Source of the DNA: Narcine bancroftii
Taxonomy: Eukaryota
Length of the DNA stretch: 64,000 nucleotides
Direction: 5' to 3'
Assembly: GCF_036971445.1 (NCBI RefSeq)
Contig: NC_091470.1
Coordinates: 51,150,001-51,214,000, forward strand
Part shown: piece by piece, positions 12,514 to 51,600 of the stretch
Layout: every line of letters starts with the position of its first letter
How positions within the stretch are numbered: the first letter of the stretch is position 1
The notes under the pieces: model-generated
Seen by the model: the letters and a program-made list of their open reading frames with translations, nothing else
Told to the model about the DNA's origin: nothing
The model's database searches: none
Translations under genes and position numbers: made by a program

Positions 12514-12677
12514 NNNNNNNNNNNNNNNNNNNNNNNNNNNNNNNNNNNNNNNNNNNNNNNNNNNNNNNNNNNNNNNNNNNNNNNNNNNNNNNNNNNNNNN
12601 NNNNNNNNNNNNNNNNNNNNNNNNNNNNNNNNNNNNNNNNNNNNNNNNNNNNNNNNNNNNNNNNNNNNNNNNNNNNN
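12514..12677. other. Assembly gap (164 N)
   Basis: Run of n characters in the sequence. Confidence 1.
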
Positions 12678-34130: not shown

Positions 34131-35159
34131 CGACATGCAAACTTCATGATATGATGTTTTCATTGATAACATGTCGTATGATGTATATGACAATATGACA
34201 ATAAATTCTTGCTACAACTGAACAAGAACTTTAAAAAAAACCAACTACAAATACAACTAGATAATACAAATTCAAAGTTTTCTTTGAAGAGCAATAAATT
34301 GAATTTGTAAATTCTTAATTGAATACTTAATTGAATTAAAAAGAGACAATAAATACAAAAATAGATGACAAATATTCACAATTATCTTAGTGAAAAGCAA
34401 GTAGACCTTGTAATTGTGCAGATCATCCTTTTATAGTGCAAGCTAAATTCAGATTCAGAAAGAAAATTTAGATCTTCAATGACCAGCAAAGATGTTGTTG
34501 AGCACAAATTGTGCCTATTAAATCTTGAAGAAAGGGTTCTGATCCAAATTTCTCTCCATAGATGTGGCCTGACCTGCTGAGTCCTTCCAGTTCCTCCAGC
34601 TCTTCTCTTTGCTGATGATCACATCTACAGTTCATGTATTTGTCTTATGCCTATTGATTGAGTTCTTCAACAAAGTAGCAATGGGAATTAAACTGCTCTG
34701 TTAACTGTAATGTGTTTGGAAATTGGACTTTTAATAAATTAGTGGAAATACCAGCACAGGCAGCATTAATGGCAACAGAAACATCTTTTCTCTCTTCCTT
34801 CCCTCAAATATTACATGGCATGCTGAGTATTTTTGGAATTTTCTGTTTTTATTTGCGATTTTAAGTTTTGCTTGTTAAGACGCTCAGTAGTCTTTAAAGA
34901 CCCCAGCATGATGTTAAATAGTCCATGATAATCCGAATGTATAATTGGGTATAAGGTTTAGGACACAGAGGCACAAAAAAATATTTTTCTGACTGAAAAA
35001 CAACCTGCATCAGTGCTCTCAGGGCGGGGGGAGGTTGGGGGGGGGGGGGGGGTCAGCATTGGAGCTCATTCCTTATCCTGTTTTTTGAGATGATGTAAAA
35101 CCTACGACCCAAGGACCTCGCTGCCACGTCCCAGCTTGCTTGGCCACGGCACACGAACC

Positions 35160-38100
35160 ATAGGTGTAAAGGGTGGGGCCAGTACTGCGCGCACTGCACT
35201 CCACCTAAAAGCTCCTTTGCGCAGGCCCGAGGACAGGTCCACGTCCTCCCCCTCAACGTCCTCCCCCTCCACGTCCTCCCCCTCCACGTCCTCCCCCTCC
35301 ACGTCCTCCCCCTCCACGTCCTCCCCCTCAAAAGATGCTCACAAACTCAAGCTAGCATGCTGGAACATCAGAACCATGCTAGATAAGACTGACAGCCATC
35401 GACCTGAACGTCGGTCTGCCCTCATTGCACATGAACTCCTCAGACTTGACATCGACATAGCCGCTCTCAGTGAAGTCCGCCTGGCAGATGTAGGCAGCTT
35501 CCAAGAACGCGGCGCGGGCTACACACTCTACTGGTCTGGCAAGCCTTCGGATGAACGACGCCTATCTGGTGTAGGCTTCATGGTCAAGAGCTTCATTGCC
35601 TCCAAACTCGAAAACCTTCCGACAGGCCTCTCGGACCGAATCATGTCCATGCGACTCCCACTTCAAAACAAGCGTCACATCACCCTCATCAGTGTCTATG
35701 CTCCAACCCTCCAGGCGGAACCAGCAGAAAAGAACAAGTTCTACACCGACCTGCGCAACCTCATCCAACGTACCCCTACAGCCGACAAGGTTGTCATCCT
35801 GGGCGACTTCAACGCTCGTGTCGGCAAAGACTCAGAAACCTGGCCAGGAATCCTGGGCAAGCATGGCGTCGGCAAGTGCAACGACAATGGGCGCCTCCTG
35901 TTGGAGCTCTGCGCAGAACAGCGGCTTGTCATTACAAACACCCTTTTTCAGCAGAGGGACAGCCTTAAGACCACCTGGATGCATCCCCGATCCAAACACT
36001 GGCACCTCCTGGACTACATCCTGGTGCGAGAAAGTGACAAACAAGATGTGCTCCACACCAGGGTCATGCCTAGCGCGGAATGCCACACTGACCACCGGCT
36101 GGTTCGCTGCAAGCTCAACCTTCACTTCAAGCCAAAGCCCAGGAACAATAAAGCCCCCAGAAAGAGGTTCAATGTTGGAAAACTGCAGTCAGACGAAGCG
36201 AGAGGAAACTTCCAGGCAAACCTCAAAGCAAAGCTCGACGTTGCAACCCGCCTCACGGACCCGTCCCCTGAAACCCTCTGGGATCAGTTGAAGACTACCA
36301 TACTGCAATCCACTGAAGAGGTACTGGGCTTCTCGTCCAGGAAAAACAAGGACTGGTTTGACGAAAACAGCCAGGAAATCCAGGAGCTGCTGGCAAAGAA
36401 GCGAGCTGCCCACCAGGCTCACCTTACAAAGCCGTCCTGTCCAGAGAAGAAACAAGCCTTCCGTCGCGCATGCAGCCATCTTCAGCGCAAACTCCGGGAG
36501 ATCCAAAATGAGTGGTGGACTAGCCTCGCCAAACGAACACAGCTCAGCGCGGACACTGACGAGGCTCTAAAGGCTGTGTACGGCCCCTCACCCCAAGTCC
36601 AAAGCCCGCTGCGCAGCTCAGACGGCAAAGTCCTCCTCAGCGACAAGATCTCCATCCTCAACCGATGGTCAGAACACTTCCAATCTCTTTTCAGTACCAA
36701 CCGCTCAGTCCAAGATTCCGCCCTGCTCCAGCTCCCTCAACAGCCCCTAAGGCTAGAGCTGGATGAGGTTCCCACCCTGGATGAGACATATAAGGCAATC
36801 GAACAACTGAAAAGTGGCAAAACAGCAGGTATGGATGGAATCCCCCCCAGAAGTCTGGAAGGCTGGCGGCAAAACTCTGCATGCCAAACTGCATGAGTTT
36901 TTCAAGCTTTGTTGGGACCAAGGTAAACTGCCTCAAGATCTTCGTGATGCCACCATCATCACCCTGTACAAAAACAAAGGCGAGAAATCAGACTGCTCAA
37001 ACTACAGGGGAATCACGTTGCTCTCCATTGCAGGCAAAATCTTCGCTAGGATTCTACTAAATAGAATAATACCTAGTGTCGCTGAGAATATTCTCCCAGA
37101 ATCACAGTGTGGCTTTCGCGCTAACAGAGGAACCACTGACATGGTCTTTGCCCTCAGACAGCTCCAAGAAAAGTGTAGAGAACAAAACAAAGGACTCTAC
37201 ATCACCTTTGTTGACCTCACCAAAGCCTTCGACACCGTGAGCAGGAAAGGGCTTTGGCAAATACTAGAGCGCATCGGATGTCCCCCAAAGTTCCTCAACA
37301 TGATTATCCAACTACACGAAAACCAACAAGGTCGGGTCAGATACAGCAATGAGCTCTCTGAACCCTTCTCCATTAACAATGGCGTGAAGCAAGGCTGTGT
37401 TCTCGCACCAACCCTCTTTTCAATCTTCTTCAGCATGATGCTGAACCAAGCCATGAAAGACCCCAACAATGAAGACGCTGTTTACATCCGGTACCGCACG
37501 GATGGCAGTCTCTTCAATCTGAGGCGCCTGCAAGCTCACACCAAGACACAAGAGAAACTTGTCCGTGAACTACTCTTTGCAGATGATGCCGCTTTAGTTG
37601 CCCATTCAGAGCCAGCTCTTCAGCGCTTGACGTCCTGCTTTGCGGAAACTGCCAAAATGTTTGGCCTGGAAGTCAGCCTGAAGAAAACTGAGGTCCTCCA
37701 TCAGCCAGCTCCCCACCATGACTACCAGCCCCCCCACATCTCCATCGGGCACACAAAACTCCAAACGGTCAACCAGTTTACCTATCTCGGCTGCACCATT
37801 TCATCAGATGCAAGGATCGACAATGAGATAGACAACAGACTCGCCAAGGCAAATAGCGCCTTTGAAAGACTACACAAAAGAGTCTGGAAAAACAACCAAC
37901 TGAAAAACCTCACAAAGATAAGCGTATACAGAGCCGTTGTCATACCCACACTCCTGTTCGGCTCCGAATCATGGGTCCTCTACCGGCACCACCTACGGCT
38001 CCTAGAACGCTTCCACCAGCGTTGTCTCCGCTCCATCCTCAACATCCATTGGAGCGCTCACACCCCTAACGTCGAGGTACTCGAGATGGCAGAGGTCGAC

Positions 38101-38514
38101 AGCATCGAGTCCACGCTGCTGAAGATCCAGCTGCGCTGGATGGGTCACGTCTCCAGAATGGAGGACCATCGCCTTCCCAAGATCGTATTATATGGCGAGC
38201 TCTCCACTGGCCACCGTGACAGAGGTGCACCAAAGAAAAGGTACAAGGACTGCCTAAAGAAATCTCTTGGTGCCTGCCACATTGACCACCGCCAGTGGGC
38301 TGATAACGCCTCAAACCGTGCATCTTGGCGCCTCACAGTTTGGCGGGCAGCAGCCTCCTTTGAAGAAGACCGCAGAGCCCACCTCACTGACAAAAGGCAA
38401 AGGAGGAAAAACCCAACACCCAACCCCAACCAACCAATTTTCCCTTGCAACCGCTGCAATCGTGTCTGCCTGTCCCGCATCGGACTGGTCAGCCACAAAC
38501 GAGCCTGCAGCTGA
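35160..38514 (+). pseudogene. RTE ORF (APE endonuclease and reverse transcriptase) broken by one frameshift
   Basis: APE motifs WNIRT, ALSEVR, SVYAPT, GDFNA, LDYIL, TDH, and RT motifs NYRGITLL, QCGFR, FVDLTKAFD, GVKQG, LFADD. There is an extra C in the C7 run at 36842-36848. ATA at 35160 stands where the paralog has ATG (45082), and there is an 18-nt in-frame deletion near 36555. Confidence 0.93.
35238..35327 (+). repeat. 15-bp in-frame repeat x6 (STSSP) in the RTE ORF N-terminus
   Basis: tccacgtcctccccc x6 here, and x3 in the paralog at 45160-45204. Confidence 0.95.
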
Positions 38515-38909
38515 CGTGGACTTTTTACCCCCTCCATAAATCTTCGTCCGCGAAGCCAAGCCAAAGTGAAGTGGACGTGTGTATAAGAAATATGGCCATG
38601 AAGATAATCAGTGGCAGAGAGCTAAGGAAATGGAGAGCAGAATGGTTGCAGACCAGGGAGGCACGGACTGTGGAAATGAGTGGATGCATGGCAGATGCTG
38701 TTTCATGCAGTTGTATGAAGTGAATCACTTCAGGAAAAACGGCTGAGAGAGGAAGTGTCTGCTGAATATTTGAGAAAGTGCAATGGGGGAGGGGATCACT
38801 CTAGTTCAACCTCAAAGATAGGTTCCAGTGGTGGAATTATTAGAGGTACCTACAACTCCTGTACCATCTTGAGTTCTGAGGTAATTAAAAATGGCAATCA
38901 ATAAAGACT

Positions 38910-40540
38910 AGTAACAACATCACCTCCATTCTTGGGCGCTCCCCAAGAATGTGTACTCAGGCCCCTAATGTTCTCTCCATGAACAAACAACTATACAGCT
39001 AAATACTGTTCTAGCTCCATCTTCAAATTTGCTGACAACACCCACAGTTGTGGGTAAGATATCAAATAATCTTAGTACCAAATGCAGGAATGAAATTGAA
39101 AGTCTCACTGGCGTCACTAGGAGGATACGGGGATGTGGACCACACCGGGTGACCATCCGAGGGGATGACACCAAAATGACTGTCTATAAAAATTTGTGCA
39201 GTGTTTCAGCAGAAATTTATTCTTTTTTATAAAAATATCCCTGTATTTAGTTCTAACAGCAAAAACATTTTTTGTAAGCCCAGCTTACATGTACCATGAT
39301 ATCTACAAGGCTAAAACTCTATGCTAATTTACCTTTTGAACCTTCTAATGCAGTCCAATCAGAGCTGTCATTATTACCCAATTACAATGACGCTTTCAAA
39401 TCACATGATTTCAGCTTCACTGTTGTTTTTGTTGCCTCTGGTGTTTTTATAGTCACTGCTTTTGTCAAATTTTCTGGTGTTTTATCTACAATATTGTGGT
39501 AATTAGTGCTTGTGAACCTATATCAATTTTTGAGAATGAAGTAGTAATTAAAGGAAAAGAAGGACAAAAAAATCAAAAAGGCATCCACTCAGTAACTAAT
39601 AATGTTGTAATTAATTACGGTGCAATTTAAAGGGGTAATTTTAATTTTGCTAGTTGTTTATGTCACTACTATTGCCATTCAGTGATATCCAGCAATTACG
39701 ATTCATGAGCAACATTAGTACAAAAAACATTACTATGGATTCTGTATGGTCTGGTATGGGAGGAGGTCCATGAGGGGGCAGGGTTTGGGTGGCACCATGA
39801 ATTACCACATCGGATGACACCAACCCTAGTGATGCCACTGGAAAGTTTAGTGACATACTGTCAAGATACCTCTCTCCTAATGTCAATGGATGAAGGAGAT
39901 CATCAATGACTTCAGTAGAGGGGGAAGAGTCCACACCCCTGACCACATTGGTGGCATTGAAGTTGAAAGAGTAGATAACTTCATGTTCTTAGGAATAAAT
40001 ATCACCAATGATCTGACCTGAGACAAGCATGTGGATATTACAGTCAAGAAAGCACACCAATGCCTCAACTTTCTTAGAAGACCAAGGAAGTTCAATATAT
40101 TCCCCTTATCCCTCAACAACTACAGGTGTGCCATCAAAAGCATATTTGCTGGATGCATCACAGCCTTGTCTGGAAGCTGTTCTGTTAAAGATCAAAAAGA
40201 AGCCACAGCTCAGGACACCACACAAACTTTCTTCTCCATGGACTTCATCTACATCTCCCACAGCCTAGGGAAGGCAGCCAACATGCTGAAAGACCTATCA
40301 CACACTGGACACACTCTCTTCTCCCTCCTCCCATTAGGGAGAAAACTTAATGATCTAAAAGCATGCCCTATCAGGCTTCCCTGCAGCCATCAGGCTCCTG
40401 AATGAACCCCATAACAATGCTATCATATTGCCCTTGCTTGTTATAATTGATCTTCCTTTTTGGTGTATTCTATTCTCTGTAAATCGTGCTTGATACAAAG
40501 CTTCATGAGTGTTAGAGATAACCTATTAGTCTGTCGCAGA
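38910..40540 (+). mobile_element. Rex1/Babar-type LINE fragment interrupted by a hAT MITE
   Basis: GAPQECVL and IFKFADNT.VVGKI lie before 39106. KEII.DF and KKAHQCLNFLRR lie after 39840. Confidence 0.8.
39106..39840. mobile_element. Non-autonomous hAT DNA transposon (MITE)
   Basis: 16-bp TIRs cactggcgtcactagg / cctagtgatgccactg (14 of 16 match). 8-bp TSD gaaagtct/gaaagttt. Subterminal gatgacaccaa motifs and an AT-rich non-coding interior. Confidence 0.85.
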
Positions 40541-41345: not shown

Positions 41346-42019
41346 CATAAAGCTGTCCCATGTGTACAATAAGTGATGCATAAGACAGGGTGTTCCTGGC
41401 TTCTGGGTAGATTGGGGAGGCTTGGAGCATTCTCCCTGCAGTAAAGGATAAGGGAGTCAAATAAAAGGCAAATTGGTAACCAAGGTGTTATTACTGCAAA
41501 AGAACAGGTTGGGAAATGAAGAGATTTTTTGCACAGAATTGGATGATCTGATGGTGGAAAACAATGATGGTGGAGGAATTGGAATGCATAGTGACTGCAA
41601 AAGGCCATTGAATGAGCACTTGAAACAGAGATTCCATAAAGTTGCCTCGGTATTTTTTAATGGAATCCACTTATTGTGTTTTGTCTGCTGGAAAAAGGAG
41701 CCAGAAAATTGTTTCCATTCTGTGCAGCTCAATGGCCTGAGGTGTGCTGGTCCACATCCACCGATCAAGATCAAGATCAAGATTCAATTTATTATCATGG
41801 TAATAAAACAGTATTACATTTCATGAAATTTCCTTTCACCTGCTGCAAGGCAAAAAGATTCACCACTGATTCACCCTTAGTTAACTGAATGAATTTCACT
41901 GGCTTTCCAAACCTTTACAAACCAGCAACAAGTGGATGCTCTATGGTATTGTTCTAAATCTTCTTTTCTTTGGCTTGGCTTCGCGGACGAAGATTTATGG
42001 AGGGGGTAAAAAGTCCACG

Positions 42020-44024
42020 TCAGCTGCAGGCTCGTTTGTGGCTGACAAGTCCGATGCGGGACAGGCAGACACGATTGCAGCGGTTGCAAGGGAAAATTGG
42101 TTGGTTGGGGTTGGGTGTTGGGTTTTTCCTCCTTTGCCTTTTGTCAGTGAGGTGGGCTCTGCGGTCTTCTTCAAAGGAGGTTGCTGCCCGCCAAACTGTG
42201 AGGCGCCAAGATGCACGGTTTGAGGCGTTATCAGCCCACTGGCGGTGGTCAATGTGGCAGGCACCAAGAGATTTCTTTAGGCAGTCCTTGTACCTTTTCT
42301 TTGGTGCACCTCTGTCACGGTGGCCAGTGGAGAGCTCGCCATATAATACGATCTTGGGAAGGCGATGGTCCTCCATTCTGGAGACGTGACCCATCCAGCG
42401 CAGCTGGATCTTCAGCAGCGTGGACTCGATGCTGTCGACCTCTGCCATCTCGAGTACTTCGACGTTTGGGGTGTAAGCGCTCCAATGGATGTTGAGGATG
42501 GAGCGGAGACAACGCTGGTGGAAGCGTTCTAGGAGCCGTAGGTGGTGCCGGTAGAGGACCCATGATTCGGAGCCGAACAGGAGTGTGGGTATGACAACGG
42601 CTCTGTATACGCTTATCTTTGTGAGGTTTTTCAGTTGGTTGTTTTTCCAGACTCTTTAGTGTAGTCTTCCAAAGGCGCTATTTGCCTTGGCGAGTCTGTT
42701 GTCTATCTCATTGTCGATCCTTGCATCTGATGAAATGGTGCAGCCGAGATAGGTAAACTGGTTGACCGTTTTGAGTTTTGTGTGCCCGATGGAGATGTGG
42801 GGGGGCTGGTAGTCATGGTGGGGAGCTGGCTGATGGAGGACCTCAGTTTTCTTCAGGCTGAATTCCAGGCCAAACATTTTGGCAGTTTCCGCAAAGCAGG
42901 ACGTCAAGCGCTGAAGAGCTGGCTCTGAATGGGCAACTAAAGCGGCATCATCTGCAAAGAGTAGTTCACGGACAAGTTTCTCTTGTGTCTTGGTGTGAGC
43001 TTGCAGGCGCCTCAGATTGAAGAGACTGCCATCCGTGCGGTACCGGATGTAAACAGCGTCTTCATTGTTGGGGTCTTTCATGGCTTGGTTCAGCATCATG
43101 CTGAAGAAGATTGAAAAGAGGGTTGGTGCGAGAACACAGCCTTGCTTCACGCCATTGTTAATGGAGAAGGGTTCAGAGAGCTCATTGCTGTATCTGACCC
43201 GACCTTGTTGGTTTTCGTGCAGTTGGATAATCATGTTGAGGAACTTTGGGGGACATCCGATGCGCTCTAGTATTTGCCAAAGCCCTTTCCTGCTCACGGT
43301 GTCGAAGGCTTTGGTGAGGTCAACAAAGGTGATGTAGAGTCCTTTGTTTTGTTCTCTGCACTTTTCTTGGAGCTGTCTGAGGGCAAAGACCATGTCAGTG
43401 GTTCCTCTGTTTGCGCGAAAGCCGCACTGTGATTCTGGGAGAATATTCTCGGCGACACTAGGTATTATTCTATTTAGTAGAATCCTAGCGAAGATTTTGC
43501 CTGCAATGGAGAGCAACGTGATTCCCCTGTAGTTTGAGCAGTCTGATTTCTCGCCTTTGTTTTTGTACAGGGTGATGATGGTGGCATCACGAAGATCCTG
43601 AGGCAGTTTACCTTGGTCCCAACAAAGCTTGAAAAACTCATGCAGTTTGGCATGCAGAGTTTTGCCGCCAGCCTTCCAGACTTCTGTGGGGATTCCATCC
43701 ATACCTGCTGCTTTGCCACTTTTCAGTTGTTCGATTGCCTTATATGTCTCATCCAGGGTGGGAACCTCATCCAGCTCTAGCCTTAGGGGCTGTTGAGGGA
43801 GCTGGAGCAGGGCAGAATCTTGGACTGAGCGGTTGGCATTGAAAAGAGATTGGAAGTGTTCTGACCATCGGTTGAGGATGGAGATCTTGTCGCTGAGGAG
43901 GACTTTGCCGTCTGAGCTGCGCAGCGGGCTTTGGACTTGGGGTGAGGGGCCGTACACAGCCTTTAGAGCCTCGTAGAAACCCCTGAAGTCGCCAATGTCC
44001 GCGCTGAGCTGTGTTCGTTTGGCG
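42020..44024 (-). pseudogene. RTE reverse transcriptase region (5'-truncated, one nonsense codon)
   Basis: All RT motifs are intact in the 458-aa ORF. AAA has changed to TAA at 42656-42658. Confidence 0.9.
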
Positions 44025-44186
44025 TTCACCATAGCTCTTTCCCAAGGTCTTTATAAATTGTGCGCTATTACCGCTAGGACTTTCCCACATCTTTATAAAT
44101 TGTGCAGCTATGTGTTTTATATGACTTTTCCAAGGTCTTTTATAAATGTATAAAGGTTTATTCAAATTGTCCATTTCAACAATTTG

Positions 44187-44940
44187 CCCGATACGGGCAG
44201 AGAGTGGGAGGCGGCGGCCCCAGTCCGGGCACAGGGAGAGCAGCAGCGGCCCCGGCCCCGGTCCGGGCGAAGGGTAGACGGCGGCGGCCCCGATACGGGC
44301 AGGAGCAAGGGGGAGACGGCGGCCCCGGCCTCGGTCGAGTGAGGCAGGTGGAGGCCCCGGTCCGGGCAGGGAGTGGGAGGCGGCGGCCCCAGTCCGGGCA
44401 CAGGGAGAGCAGCAGCGGCCCCGGTCCGGGCGAAGGGTAGACGGCGGCGGCCCCGATACGGGCAGGAGCAAGGGGGAGACGGCGGCCCCGGCCTCGGTCG
44501 AGTGAGGCAGGCGGAGGCCCCGGTCCGGGCAGGGAGTGGGAGGCGGTGGCCCCAGTCCGGGCACAGGGAGAGCAGCAGCGGCCCCGGCCCCGGTCCGGGC
44601 GAAGGGTAGACGGCGGCGGCCCCGATACGGGCAGGAGCAAGGGGGAGACGGCGGCCCCGGCCTCGGTCGAGTGAGGCAGGCGGAGGCCCCGGTCCGGGCA
44701 GGGAGTGGGAGGCGGCGGCCCAAATCCAGGCACAGGGAGAGCAACAGCAGCCCCGGCCCCGGTCCGGGCGAAGGGTAGACGGCGGCGGCCCCGATACGGG
44801 CAGGAGCAAGGGGGAGACGGCGGCCCCGGCCTCGGTCGAGTGAGGCAGGCGGAGGCCCCGGTCCAGGCAGGGAGTGGGAGGCGGCGGCCCCAGTCCAGGC
44901 ACAGGGTGAACTGCGGCGGCCTCGGCCCCGGTCCGGGCAG
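44187..44940. repeat. GC/CpG-rich higher-order minisatellite, 163-169-bp unit, about 4.4 copies
   Basis: Marker cgatacgggcag at 44189, 44291, 44454, 44623 and 44792. Each unit has five ~30-38-bp subunits with core ggcggcccc. Confidence 0.95.
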
Positions 44941-45081
44941 TATGGACCGACCTAGGAGGGGAGGCAGACCCCTCCAGCCCGGGTAAGAAACCTGCATAGG
45001 AGAAGGCCACTCCGATATAAAACCTACGACCCAAGGACCTCGCTGCCACGTCCCAGCTTGCTCGGCCACGGCACACGAACC

Positions 45082-45671
45082 ATGGGTGTAAAGGGTGGGG
45101 CCAGTACTGCGCGCACTGCACTCCACCTAAAAGCTCCTTTGCGCAGGCCCGAGGACAGGTCCACGTCCTCCCCCTCAACGTCCTCCCCCTCCACGTCCTC
45201 CCCCTCAAAAGATGCTCACAAACTCAAGCTAGCATGCTGGAACATCAGAACCATGCTAGACAAGGCTGACAGCCACCGACCTGAACGTCGGTCTGCCCTC
45301 ATTGCACATGAACTCCTCAGACTTGACATCGACATAGCCGCTCTCAGTGAAGTCCGCCTGGCAGATGTAGGCAGCCTCCAAGAACACGGCGCGGGCTACA
45401 CACTCTACTGGTCTGGCAAGCCTTCGGATGAACGACGCCTATCTGGTGTAGGCTTCATGGTCAAGAGCTTCATTGCCTCCAAACTCGAAAACCTTCCGAC
45501 AGGCCTCTCGGACCGAATCATGTCCATGCGACTCCCACTTCAAAACAAGCGTCACATCACCCTCATCAGTGTCTATGCTCCAACCCTCCAGGCGGAACCA
45601 GCAGAAAAGAACAAGTTCTACACCGACCTGCGCAACCTCATCCAACGTACCCCTACAGCCGACAAGGTTGT
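45082..45671 (+). pseudogene. RTE ORF 5' part (APE endonuclease N-terminal half), truncated
   Basis: ATG in an accATGg context, with motifs WNIRT, ALSEVR and SVYAPT. It breaks at ...ADKVV, at the TSD. Confidence 0.9.
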
Positions 45672-46098
45672 TCTAAATGCCAGCTCACTAAATGCCTCTG
45701 AGTGACAATGATGAGGTTAAGTTTTGACTTTCATCACTGATTTTAATAGACTATTTTTTCATGTCTCTGAAATTTAGAGGTATTTATAAACTATTATTCA
45801 AGATAACATTTTAAAAGTTATTTATATAGTTAAAAAATAAAATAAAATGGATACACTTGGAAAAATAAAAACATAACTATTGTTAAAATATGTATATTTC
45901 CTTCTCTTTTGCCTCCTAATGTGATGGCCCCAGTAGGTCTCATCCTGGGATCCAGCTCTTAATGCCCTTGGATGATGTTGGGAACCCTAGAATTGCCCAC
46001 CTCTGACAGAGCCCAGTAGCAGAGCAAGCTGACAAATTCAGCTGCCTCACCATCCTCCATACCCCACTCCCCACTCAAAAATGGCTTCGTTTGGACAG

Positions 46099-46402
46099 CT
46101 CTTGGTGCCTGCCACATTGACCATCGCCAGTGGGCTGATATCGCCTCAAACCGTGCATCTTGGCACCTCACAGTTCGGCGGGCAGCAACCTCCTTTGAAG
46201 AAGACCGCAGAGCCCATCTCACTGTCAAAAGACAAAGGAGGAAAAACCCAACACCCAACCCCAACCCACCAATTTTCCCTTGCACCCACTGCAACCGTGT
46301 CTGCCTGTCCCGCATCGGACTTGTCAGCCACAAACGAGCCTGCACCTGACGTGGACATTACCCCTCCATAAATCTTCATCCGCGAAGCCAAGCCAAAGAA
46401 GA
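46099..46402 (+). mobile_element. Young RTE LINE 3' fragment
   Basis: Matches 38265-38566. Tail gccaaagaaga. Confidence 0.93.
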
Positions 46403-46789
46403 TACAAAATGAAGGAAAAATGCACTTTAGGAATTAAACTATTGAAAAATCAATGCCAGATTAGTTGCCTCTAGACTTTAATTTGAAAACCATGAGATCC
46501 ACAGGGTAACTGAATAAAAACGTACACTTGGGGAGTTGGGGCAAGAGTGTAGTAGAATGCCATCTCTGGTGAGTAAGTTAAGAGAAATTGTGTACTCTTC
46601 AGAAAATCTTGTGAATGCTTGCACAGTTTTTTTGTAATGTAGTACATTGCTTAGTACGTGTTTGTTCCAACAATACCTCCCAGATACTTAAAAACAAAGT
46701 GATTAATGGAAGTAGATAATTGGGAATGTCCAGCAATGTCATCAGGCAAACTCAGTTTAAACATCTGTCTGATTATTTAAACTATTTAT

Positions 46790-48639: not shown

Positions 48640-51600
48640 CCATACCTTGTGAACACACCTCGTAGTTCCTCAGTTGTTTTTTTCCGTTGTCGTTGACTGC
48701 ATTGCCACTTTTATAGGCCATTTGGAGTGTGCATCCACAATAATCAGAAAATTTCCCCCATCAATGGGAAATCAGTGCCATGGTTGTGATTGCTATTTCC
48801 ATGGGTTAGCTTCGGCCTGGGGCGTCTTCAGTTGCATTGCTTGGCAGATGTGACATCTACTCAATGTCACTGTCCATCGATGGCCACCAGACATGCATGC
48901 ATACTTGCCCTTTCATCTGGACTATTCCTGGATGATTAGTGTGGAGCTCTTTTAGCAGGGCCTCTCGCCATTTCTTGGGGATGATTGTTCTTGTTCCCCA
49001 CAGTGGGTAACCTTCTTCAATTGATATTTCATTTTGCCACCTGTAATAAGCTTTCAAATCAGGGGTAATACTTTCATCTTCTGGCCACCCATTTAAGATG
49101 AAGTATAGAATCTTCGACAGTATAGCCTCTTACCATACCTCTTTGCTGACAGCCTTTGCTACAATAGGCAAGGGGTGAAATTGTTCCTGGTTGATCACTG
49201 TGCCTTCCGCTGACCAATTAATGTTCCTTCCGCATGTTCTGTCTCAGGCAGAGATAAGAGCAATAATGCATCCGCATTGACTGACGGACAATGCTTTAGG
49301 TCATAGTCATACGCCGTGACCTTCATCAGCCATCTTTAAATTCTCGCCACTGCTAACACAGGAATGGCTTCCCTGGGGTCTAAGATCGAGTTCATTGGTT
49401 TATTATGTCACTAAAGTAAACTTCTGACCACATAGGTATTGGTGAAATCACTTTATACCAAAGATTATGGCCAGTCCTTCCTTCTCCAGTTGTGCATGGT
49501 TCTGTTCACAGGCCGTCAAGGAGCAGGAAGCATGTGCAGCCAGTTGTTCTCCCTTTTCTGTGACTTGTGACAATACGACACCTCAACCAACAGGTGAAGC
49601 ATCAATGGCAGGGGTCATTTCCTTGTCAGCAGTTTCTTCAAGTGATTGAAAGCTTTGTCGGTTTCCGCATTCCAGCACCATTTCTGGTCTTTTTTAAACA
49701 ATTGGTTGAGTGGGTTGCACAAAGTTGACATATTATGGATGTGCTTTCGATAATGGTTAACCAAATCTAAAAATGATTATAACTCAGATAGAGTCGATGG
49801 GCAAGGTGCACTGACTCCTTCACAGTCAATCGTAAATCCCAAATATGTTACTGAGGATATCATAAATACACACTTGTCTTGATGCAGTTGGACTTTAGCC
49901 TGTTCTAACCTGGCTAGGACTTTTTCCAGGTTTATTAGGTGCTCTGCTTCATCCCAACCCATTATGAAGATGTCATCTAGGTAACATCCAACATTTAGTC
50001 CTTACAATAGTTTGTCTATGACAGCTTGAACTATTACTGGAGCTGATGATATCCAATATGGCATCCTGGAGTAAGTGAACAATCCCAGTTGAGTGTTGAT
50101 AACCACATAATTCCTAGATTTGTAGTCCAATTCAACTTGTGATAAATCCAATTTTGTGAATTTTTTTTCCCACCATTCATAGCTTGAAATAATTCCTCTG
50201 CGCTTGGATGGGATGTCCTGAAACTTGCAGCATGTAGCACATCAATTGACTCAAAGACTTGTTGACTCAAACCAAGGATTTTATTAACAAAAGACTGGAG
50301 CGTAATACATCAAGGTCAACCAGTCCAGACTGACCTGGGTCTGGTTAGGAGCAGTCCTTTATGACCTGCCAGTGGGCGTGGCTACGGCTCTCAGCCAATC
50401 ATTATTACTATATGTAAATATATACAAATATATACATTGGTGATAGTATCCTGTACTATCACACAGTGCTTTGATAATTGTGACCTTATAGTCCCAACAA
50501 ATTAGAATTTCACCGTTGGGTTTTCTGACCGGCACAATAGGAGCTGTCCAGTCGCTGTACTGAAGTTTCTCGAGTATTCCTTCATTTTTTAATCTGTTGA
50601 GTTCCAGTTCAATTTTTTTTATTGCAAAAGGTACCATCTTTGGCTGAAAGATCTTAGGATTGGCTTCCGGTTCATGTTGCAATTTTACCTGGACTCCCTG
50701 AATTTTTCCCAGATCCTTCTCAAAAAGTGACTGATACTTCTGAAGCACCTGCTTCAGCTTTGATTTATTTTTGCCCACAATTTGTACATTCTGACTTGAC
50801 CATAACAATTTCTTTCCAATCCAGTTGGATGTGTGACAACCAATCCCTTCCCAACAAGGTGGGTCCTTTTATATCTACAATGTAAAGGGGTGATCCTTTC
50901 TTTGTCTGTCCCTTACACTTGATGACTACTTTACATTTCCCTTGCACTTCGACTTTCTCTCTGGTAACCGTCTTTAACTCAAGGTCCAACCGTTTCATTT
51001 CAAGTTTGGACAGTAGTTTGTCTTTCAGATCTTTTGACATTAATGGCACAGCTGCCCCTGTGTTGAGTTCCATCTGGACTAGTTTATTGTTAACTTTAAT
51101 ATGAACAAAAATTTCTGACTGGCGATCAACTACACTGCGGGTGTACTTTGCCAATATTCTGTCATCCTTGGAGTCACTTTGGTACTCTGGCTCACTGCTG
51201 GACCTTTAGTCATTTCCCCTAAGTTTTTTTTTATTTTGAAAGATTGTTTTTTATACTTCAATGTTGGAAGATTGCTTTTTACTTTAATTTTTTTCGTCCC
51301 TCAGTGAGCCTCTTTTCCTCTATTTTCTTTCTGTCTTGAACACTTTGACTTGATATGTCCCTCCTTGTCACATAAATAGCACTTGTCCCTTTTGTGATAA
51401 CAAATATCAGGGCTGTGGTTATTCCTACCACAGCAGAAGCATTCTCATTGGTCCATTCTTTTCACCACATGTTCCCCTGTCAATGTTATGATTGGCTCAA
51501 TGCTATTTCATAGACGGACTTTATGTCCAAACATTTCCTGCATAAGAATTGTTGTTGTTTTGGGCCGTTTCCAAAATACTTCCAAAACTACATGTCACTG

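Follow-up and report, generated by a model that had tools for sequence, protein, structure and literature searches.

In a 64,000-nucleotide stretch of the genome of the electric ray Narcine bancroftii (NCBI RefSeq assembly GCF_036971445.1, contig NC_091470.1, positions 51,150,001 to 51,214,000 of the forward strand), hereafter the window, a single 11-bp target site duplication (TSD) encloses, at 41949..45678, a minus-strand 3' arm of an RTE retrotransposon, a leader, and a plus-strand 5' arm. This arrangement very probably records one inverting insertion event. Our account as a whole, which is probable on balance, is that an AviRTE-related long interspersed nuclear element (LINE) of the RTE type was twin-primed from a near-full-length RNA, and that the CpG-rich tandem array in the leader is the 5' untranslated region (UTR) of the element's own lineage. 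Positions are given in window coordinates throughout, and the geometry is read from the assembled window sequence.

The two TSD copies, at 41949..41959 on the element's 3' end and 45668..45678 on its 5' side, are identical, and this 11-mer has exactly two occurrences in the window with both strands counted. The 3' arm (41960..44024, minus strand) consists of a short A/G-rich tail, the 3' UTR, and the open reading frame (ORF) from about residue 385 to its end, including the reverse transcriptase (RT) domain (RVT_1, E 7.7e-36) and a C-terminal Cys motif. Inside its 8-nt tail, which runs out to 41960, this arm (41968-44024) corresponds to 38566-36527 of a reference copy, with 21 mismatches in 2039 aligned nt (1.0%), and its ORF has one premature stop, at 42656-42658. 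The inversion junction falls at 44024..44025, as placed by alignment of the arms. Beyond the leader, the 5' arm (45014-45671, plus strand) corresponds to reference 35092-35794, with 8 mismatches in 658 nt (1.2%), and contains the ORF start and endonuclease residues 1-139 (45253..45671; Exo_endo_phos, E 2.1e-05). The frame stays open across the TSD and meets a stop codon at 45703-45705.

The part of the element lost between the arms is reference 35795-36526, or 732 nt. An independent check against relatives of ~1059 amino acids (aa) agrees, placing the end of the 5' arm at residue 139 and the beginning of the 3' arm at residue 384-385. The 5' arm shares its final 4 nt with the first 4 nt of the adjoining TSD copy, which is the microhomology expected of internal priming; at least four matches are reached at 7 of 3464 reference-element positions (0.2%). 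The sequence-only reading had described the single TSD, both arms, a deletion of about 730 bp and the 4-nt overlap, and all of these are borne out.

The reference copy used for these alignments (35092..38566, plus strand) is an uninverted member of the same young subfamily, 5'-truncated in its UTR. Over its last 300 nt, the inverted insertion differs from this copy by 0.7%, and from the five others compared by 2.7% to 5.1%; divergence among the other RTE copies of the window is 3% to 6%. The reference copy was ruled out as the donor, as it is without the leader and has private lesions, namely an 18-nt deletion and a 1-nt frameshift; it also has no TSD. These two longest copies are thus mutual closest relatives, 3.4 kb apart, with neither the donor of the other.

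In twin priming, as described in an excerpt of PMC2912911, one target end primes at the RNA 3' end and the other at an internal site, and microhomology marks the resulting 5' junction. The order, orientation and lack of overlap of the arms and the microhomology all fit the description excerpted there, and, together with the uniqueness of the TSD, they support the twin-priming geometry proposed earlier. By this route, the endonuclease would have cut the two strands 11 nt apart. The first end would have primed reverse transcription at the RNA 3' tail, with copying up to the equivalent of 36527, and the second would have paired over 4 nt with an internal site in the part coding for the endonuclease, with copying from there to the RNA 5' end. 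Joining of the two cDNAs would then have flipped the 5' part and lost the 732 nt. A single RNA probably served for both arms, which fits their equal divergence from the reference copy. A rival in which each end of the cut was primed on a different RNA of the family, as proposed for U5/L1 chimeras by second-RNA twin priming (PMC4476161), is unlikely, since the arms are ordered, non-overlapping and equally diverged from the reference, as a single RNA predicts.

Two further alternatives draw on the repeat-rich setting, in which a single LINE family accounts for 8 copies or fragments in 64 kb. Later rearrangement of a normal insertion, or the joining of two insertions by deletion, would need either a breakpoint that coincides precisely with the edge of the TSD or an 11-bp repeat present by chance at both outer ends (a common 11-mer within ~15 nt of both element ends has a chance of ~3e-4), and is very improbable. 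An assembly artefact between repeat copies might be suspected in a repetitive region, all the more with a gap of 164 N bases elsewhere in the window (12514-12677). However, a misjoin would not produce a TSD that is unique, flanks the element on either side and comes with microhomology, and the structure at 41949..45678 is no palindrome; we give this explanation the smallest chance of all.

The arms encode, in order, an apurinic/apyrimidinic-type (APE) endonuclease and an RT (Pfam Exo_endo_phos and RVT_1), and map to single-ORF relatives of ~1059 aa. Among the matches listed, the closest relatives of the 5' arm, from carp and others, are 74% to 79% identical, and manakin proteins are 67% to 69% identical over 138 aa. 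The proximal 5' UTR (44941..45252, plus strand) is homologous, in a partly by-eye comparison, to AviRTE's conserved 5' UTR, which is ~800 bp long; two short interspersed nuclear elements (SINEs) mobilized by AviRTE have GC-rich GGCCCCGG heads (PMC4844689). The resemblance was judged against the AviRTE consensus in supplement 5 of that paper, with every long sequence represented by its initial 400 nt; by eye, homology with this part of the consensus stops near 44933, and the first ~215 nt of AviRTE are without a counterpart. The translation of 44932-45054 also has a match in a mantis-shrimp protein (46% over 41 aa). Together, the UTR homology, the manakin matches and the layout suggest membership in the RTE clade. 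A GTDB scan returned 3 loci from 29 stretches that, at 35% to 43% identity, are too distant for UTR comparison and were not used.

The proximal UTR also contains a 15-bp minisatellite, with 3.1 copies here (45163-45208) and 6.1 in the reference copy (35238-35329). It is a second variable number tandem repeat (VNTR), distinct from the array described below, and differs in number between two copies ~1% apart.

The leader has three parts: an AT-rich segment (44025-44186), a GC-rich array (44187-44940) and native AviRTE-type 5' UTR (44941-45013). It has no match in the rest of the window beyond hits of 12 to 23 nt. The sequence-only reading had set the sequence absent from other RTE copies at 44025 to ~44940. 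Its start holds, and its end moves to 45013: 5' truncation affects the reference copy as well, so that 44941-45013 is ordinary RTE UTR missing from that copy. The array (plus strand, from a tandem-repeat scan) is a GC-rich VNTR of 4.5 units of 169 bp, each made of five subunits of 32 to 35 bp. With 78% GC, 87 CpG and a CpG observed/expected ratio of 0.80 (window: 0.36), its composition is that of a CpG island, and all 13 GGCCCCGG words of the window fall inside it. Such an array may spread functional CpG islands. The RNA would have had a 5' UTR of ~1.07 kb, or 1.23 kb with the AT-rich part included, carrying this array.

Searches for another origin of the leader gave little. Rfam returned no match at gathering score in the window and three chance matches (E 2 to 6) in the leader, so no ribosomal RNA, small nuclear RNA or ribozyme origin was found by this route; a rough descriptor of an HDV-like ribozyme, itself without positive-control validation, had no hits in the leader. 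The array has no better fold than shuffled versions of itself (z +2.3), as all 20 of 20 shuffles equalled or surpassed it. On the minus strand, all three antisense frames are open across the array region (44162-45223), for 316 to 394 codons.

An antisense open frame across the array yielded one match among 8000 scored candidates, P0001, a Narcine bancroftii predicted protein annotated as 'formin-2-like' that reads through the same UTR-array junction in antisense. Its residues 7-157 match 45004-44552 in an ungapped alignment spanning the junction, and residues 158-247 align to further array units in a different order. P0001 differs from the window at 29 of 241 residues, or at least 4% nucleotide divergence; 4 of the 29 differences are CpG-type changes, and outside the array 3 of 21 codons are changed. 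The locus is therefore not a recent donor, as the insertion stands 0.7% from the reference copy. That the UTR-array junction was inherited at a second, diverged locus favors the array as native UTR, and we hold with good confidence that it is the lineage's own 5' UTR; it may be present family-wide. The open state of the array in three antisense frames likely explains the 'formin-2-like' model, which may be a mis-annotated repeat. A fit of residues 1-6 to 45026 needs 5 substitutions, and was too weak to use. A suggested L1 likeness of the P0001 tail was not confirmed (PDB matches only at E >0.7; E 0.13 for the whole protein), and an RT cluster found for the tail in the Atlas, at 0.88, is a lead only.

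The sequence-only reading had offered two origins for the leader, a native VNTR-containing 5' UTR, now favored, and a 5' transduction covering all 0.9 kb, now disfavored by the second locus with the same join. In the latter case, twin priming would stand and everything upstream of ~44940 would be a one-off transduction, from a donor RTE with a host minisatellite upstream of it and a promoter outside the element driving its transcription. The array is indeed at only one other known locus, the AT-rich part lacks RTE likeness, and transductions can found subfamilies, such as SVA_F1 (PMC3287187, in part). Nevertheless, the other locus is at least 4% different with a changed order of units, whereas a donor should be closer (0.7% to 1.2% between the copy and its sibling), and the array meets the UTR where, by eye, the heads of AviRTE-mobilized SINEs also join. 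Were P0001 from another species, an old master copy might account for both loci, but the array would even so have been inherited and would amount to a UTR. We consider such a transduction improbable.

The AT-rich segment (44025..44186, plus strand; 33% GC, no Rfam match) contains three degenerate repeats of ~43 nt and four TATAAA words, and may be distal UTR, a short 5' transduction or captured DNA. A refinement of the favored account, to which we give slightly less than an even chance, keeps the array native and makes only this segment foreign, as upstream flank of the donor or as DNA captured when the cDNAs were joined. In keeping with it, GC content changes abruptly from 33% to 78%, the array of the window begins mid-subunit while that of P0001 ends at the same subunit position, and the last ~75 residues of P0001 diverge from the segment. 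Against it, only 4 substitutions separate residues 248-254 of P0001 from the array-adjacent 21 nt (a fit reached by 2.7e-4 of window positions, a post hoc figure involving a 1-nt shift), and freshly templated filler would not have the degenerate repeats seen here. A longer, frameshift-tolerant comparison of P0001 with the segment was not significant, as 11 of 200 shuffles reached its score. A 53-codon open frame runs through the segment on the minus strand (44025-44185); no family was found for it, and its best ESM Atlas value, 0.79, gave no lead.

Several observations count against the account of a twin-primed RTE insertion headed by its own array. The 162 bp of AT-rich sequence lack an explanation in it. 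The array is known at two loci only, the second as a predicted protein alone, and no third locus was found among 1359 short-protein candidates (queried with both the array and the AT-rich segment), in a set of nine with one array hit, or among the 120 matches listed. Repeats are rarely covered by gene models. Inverted copies amount to one of the eight RTE copies in the window. As to the target site, the excerpted part of PMC6007223 gives RTE TSDs a 10- to 12-bp peak and a first base A, with a T-stretch ~10 nt upstream and a T before the A. The TSD here, of 11 bp and beginning with A in the element sense, fits this type, but TTT lies at -12 to -14 rather than ~-10, and the preceding base is C, not T. 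Finally, the best local matches to the published AviRTE 5' UTR primer pair are correctly oriented and 125 bp apart in both copies (the published product is 126 bp), yet either match by itself, at 6 mismatches, does not exceed what chance yields in the window.

To place the insertion among known systems, we compared it with L1 and other elements. Like twin-primed L1 copies, as they appear in the excerpted literature, it has a TSD of at least 10 bp, an inverted 5' part beside the 5' TSD, a tailed sense 3' part, microhomology and a deletion between the arms. Unlike them, it belongs to the RTE clade as assigned above, has a single ORF and no poly(A), and lies in a non-mammalian host. With AviRTE and related aquatic RTEs, the element has in common a single endonuclease-RT ORF, a conserved proximal 5' UTR and a long 5' UTR (PMC4844689). 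It is not AviRTE itself, as a 750-bp array stands where, by eye, the ~215-nt AviRTE head would be. BuceSINE and ManaSINE2 likewise have a GC-rich head with the GGCCCCGG 8-mer on an RTE 5' UTR, and, in the sequences excerpted, the heads of ManaSINE1 and ManaSINE2 join by eye near the same UTR motif as the array. In contrast, BuceSINE and ManaSINE2 are short and non-autonomous with short heads, whereas the window element has a 169-bp higher-order array before a coding body.

Mouse and rat L1 5' UTRs are built of tandem CpG-island monomers that bear signals for transcription, and UTR replacement has recurred among L1 lineages (PMC5381506, excerpt). The likeness, as far as the excerpt goes, extends to tandem CpG-rich 5' units of ~170 to 200 bp and a ~300-bp tether to the ORF. 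Rodent L1 is of another clade, and its promoter activity is proven, while for the array it is suggested by analogy. By that comparison, the array most likely is an internal Pol II promoter of monomers, which the lineage would have acquired in place of an ancestral AviRTE-type head. SVA also has a GC-rich VNTR, with 30- to 50-bp subunits, in a retrotransposed RNA (PMC3287187, in part). However, SVA is non-autonomous and L1-mobilized, with hexamer, Alu-like and SINE-R modules and a poly(A) tail, none of them seen in the window element; specifically, neither a CCCTCT hexamer head nor a poly(A) tail was seen in the sequence or the tandem-repeat scan. As it heads a protein-coding LINE and lacks these modules, the array is not SVA, and the suggestion of an SVA-like composite fails as a statement of membership. 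The array would work like mouse L1 promoter monomers and not like SVA.

We found no report of RTE twin priming or of a tandem-repeat RTE 5' UTR in full-text searches of a collection without most subscription papers, and the array may already sit in a Repbase or Dfam consensus. In human cells, according to an excerpt of PMC4245944, 5' inversions came from L1 only, bar one Nimb-2_DR insert, with RTE not among the elements assayed; non-L1 inversions are thus rare but already known. For L2 and RTE, only template-switch chimeras are reported in an excerpt of PMC4476161, and excerpts of PMC5786205, PMC13708176, PMC7846101, PMC5389967 and PMC13295347 include no RTE inversion. The excerpt of PMC4245944 also proposes that short overhangs cannot prime inversion. 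Because RTEs leave 10- to 12-nt overhangs, the present case makes this idea testable by genome-wide counts of inversions.

A broader reading, which we regard as doubtful, is that this electric-ray RTE lineage converged on L1 traits, in that a monomeric CpG-island promoter took the place of its ancestral 5' end, at the UTR position where new heads were added to bird SINEs, and that it twin-primes regularly. If true, 5' inversion would be a matter of overhang length (at least 10 nt) rather than of L1 proteins, poly(A) or a mammalian host, and the UTR join would offer RTEs a site at which promoters can be captured again and again. At present, it extends to one inversion and two array-bearing loci. 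Replacement of promoters by CpG-rich monomers marks the arms race between L1 and its hosts, and the L1 survey excerpted from PMC5381506 gives no evidence of it in non-mammalian vertebrates; a case from a ray RTE would broaden the picture. RTE-1 is in development for gene insertion (PMC13708176, excerpt), where inversions are an unwanted product.

Of the 8 RTE copies in the window, 2 have a perfect terminal repeat of at least 10 bp. A Pfam scan for a host gene, covering 150 of 336 non-RTE frames (at least 52 aa, 27.7 to 59.3 kb), gave 4 frames with matches, none retained as a host gene. Three come from decayed pieces of a long terminal repeat retrotransposon at 48860-51205 (minus strand; Pfam protease, RT and integrase zinc-binding). 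The fourth is a weak ABA_GPCR match at 39278-39499 (E 1.2e-4), a hydrophobic stretch and probably spurious. After the inversion, the GC-rich leader faces out through the right TSD, toward an RTE 3' fragment with a tail on the same strand (46099-46404). Speculatively, a read-through RNA of 44187-46404 would join an RTE 5' UTR to a 3' tail, the layout of a bipartite non-autonomous RTE.

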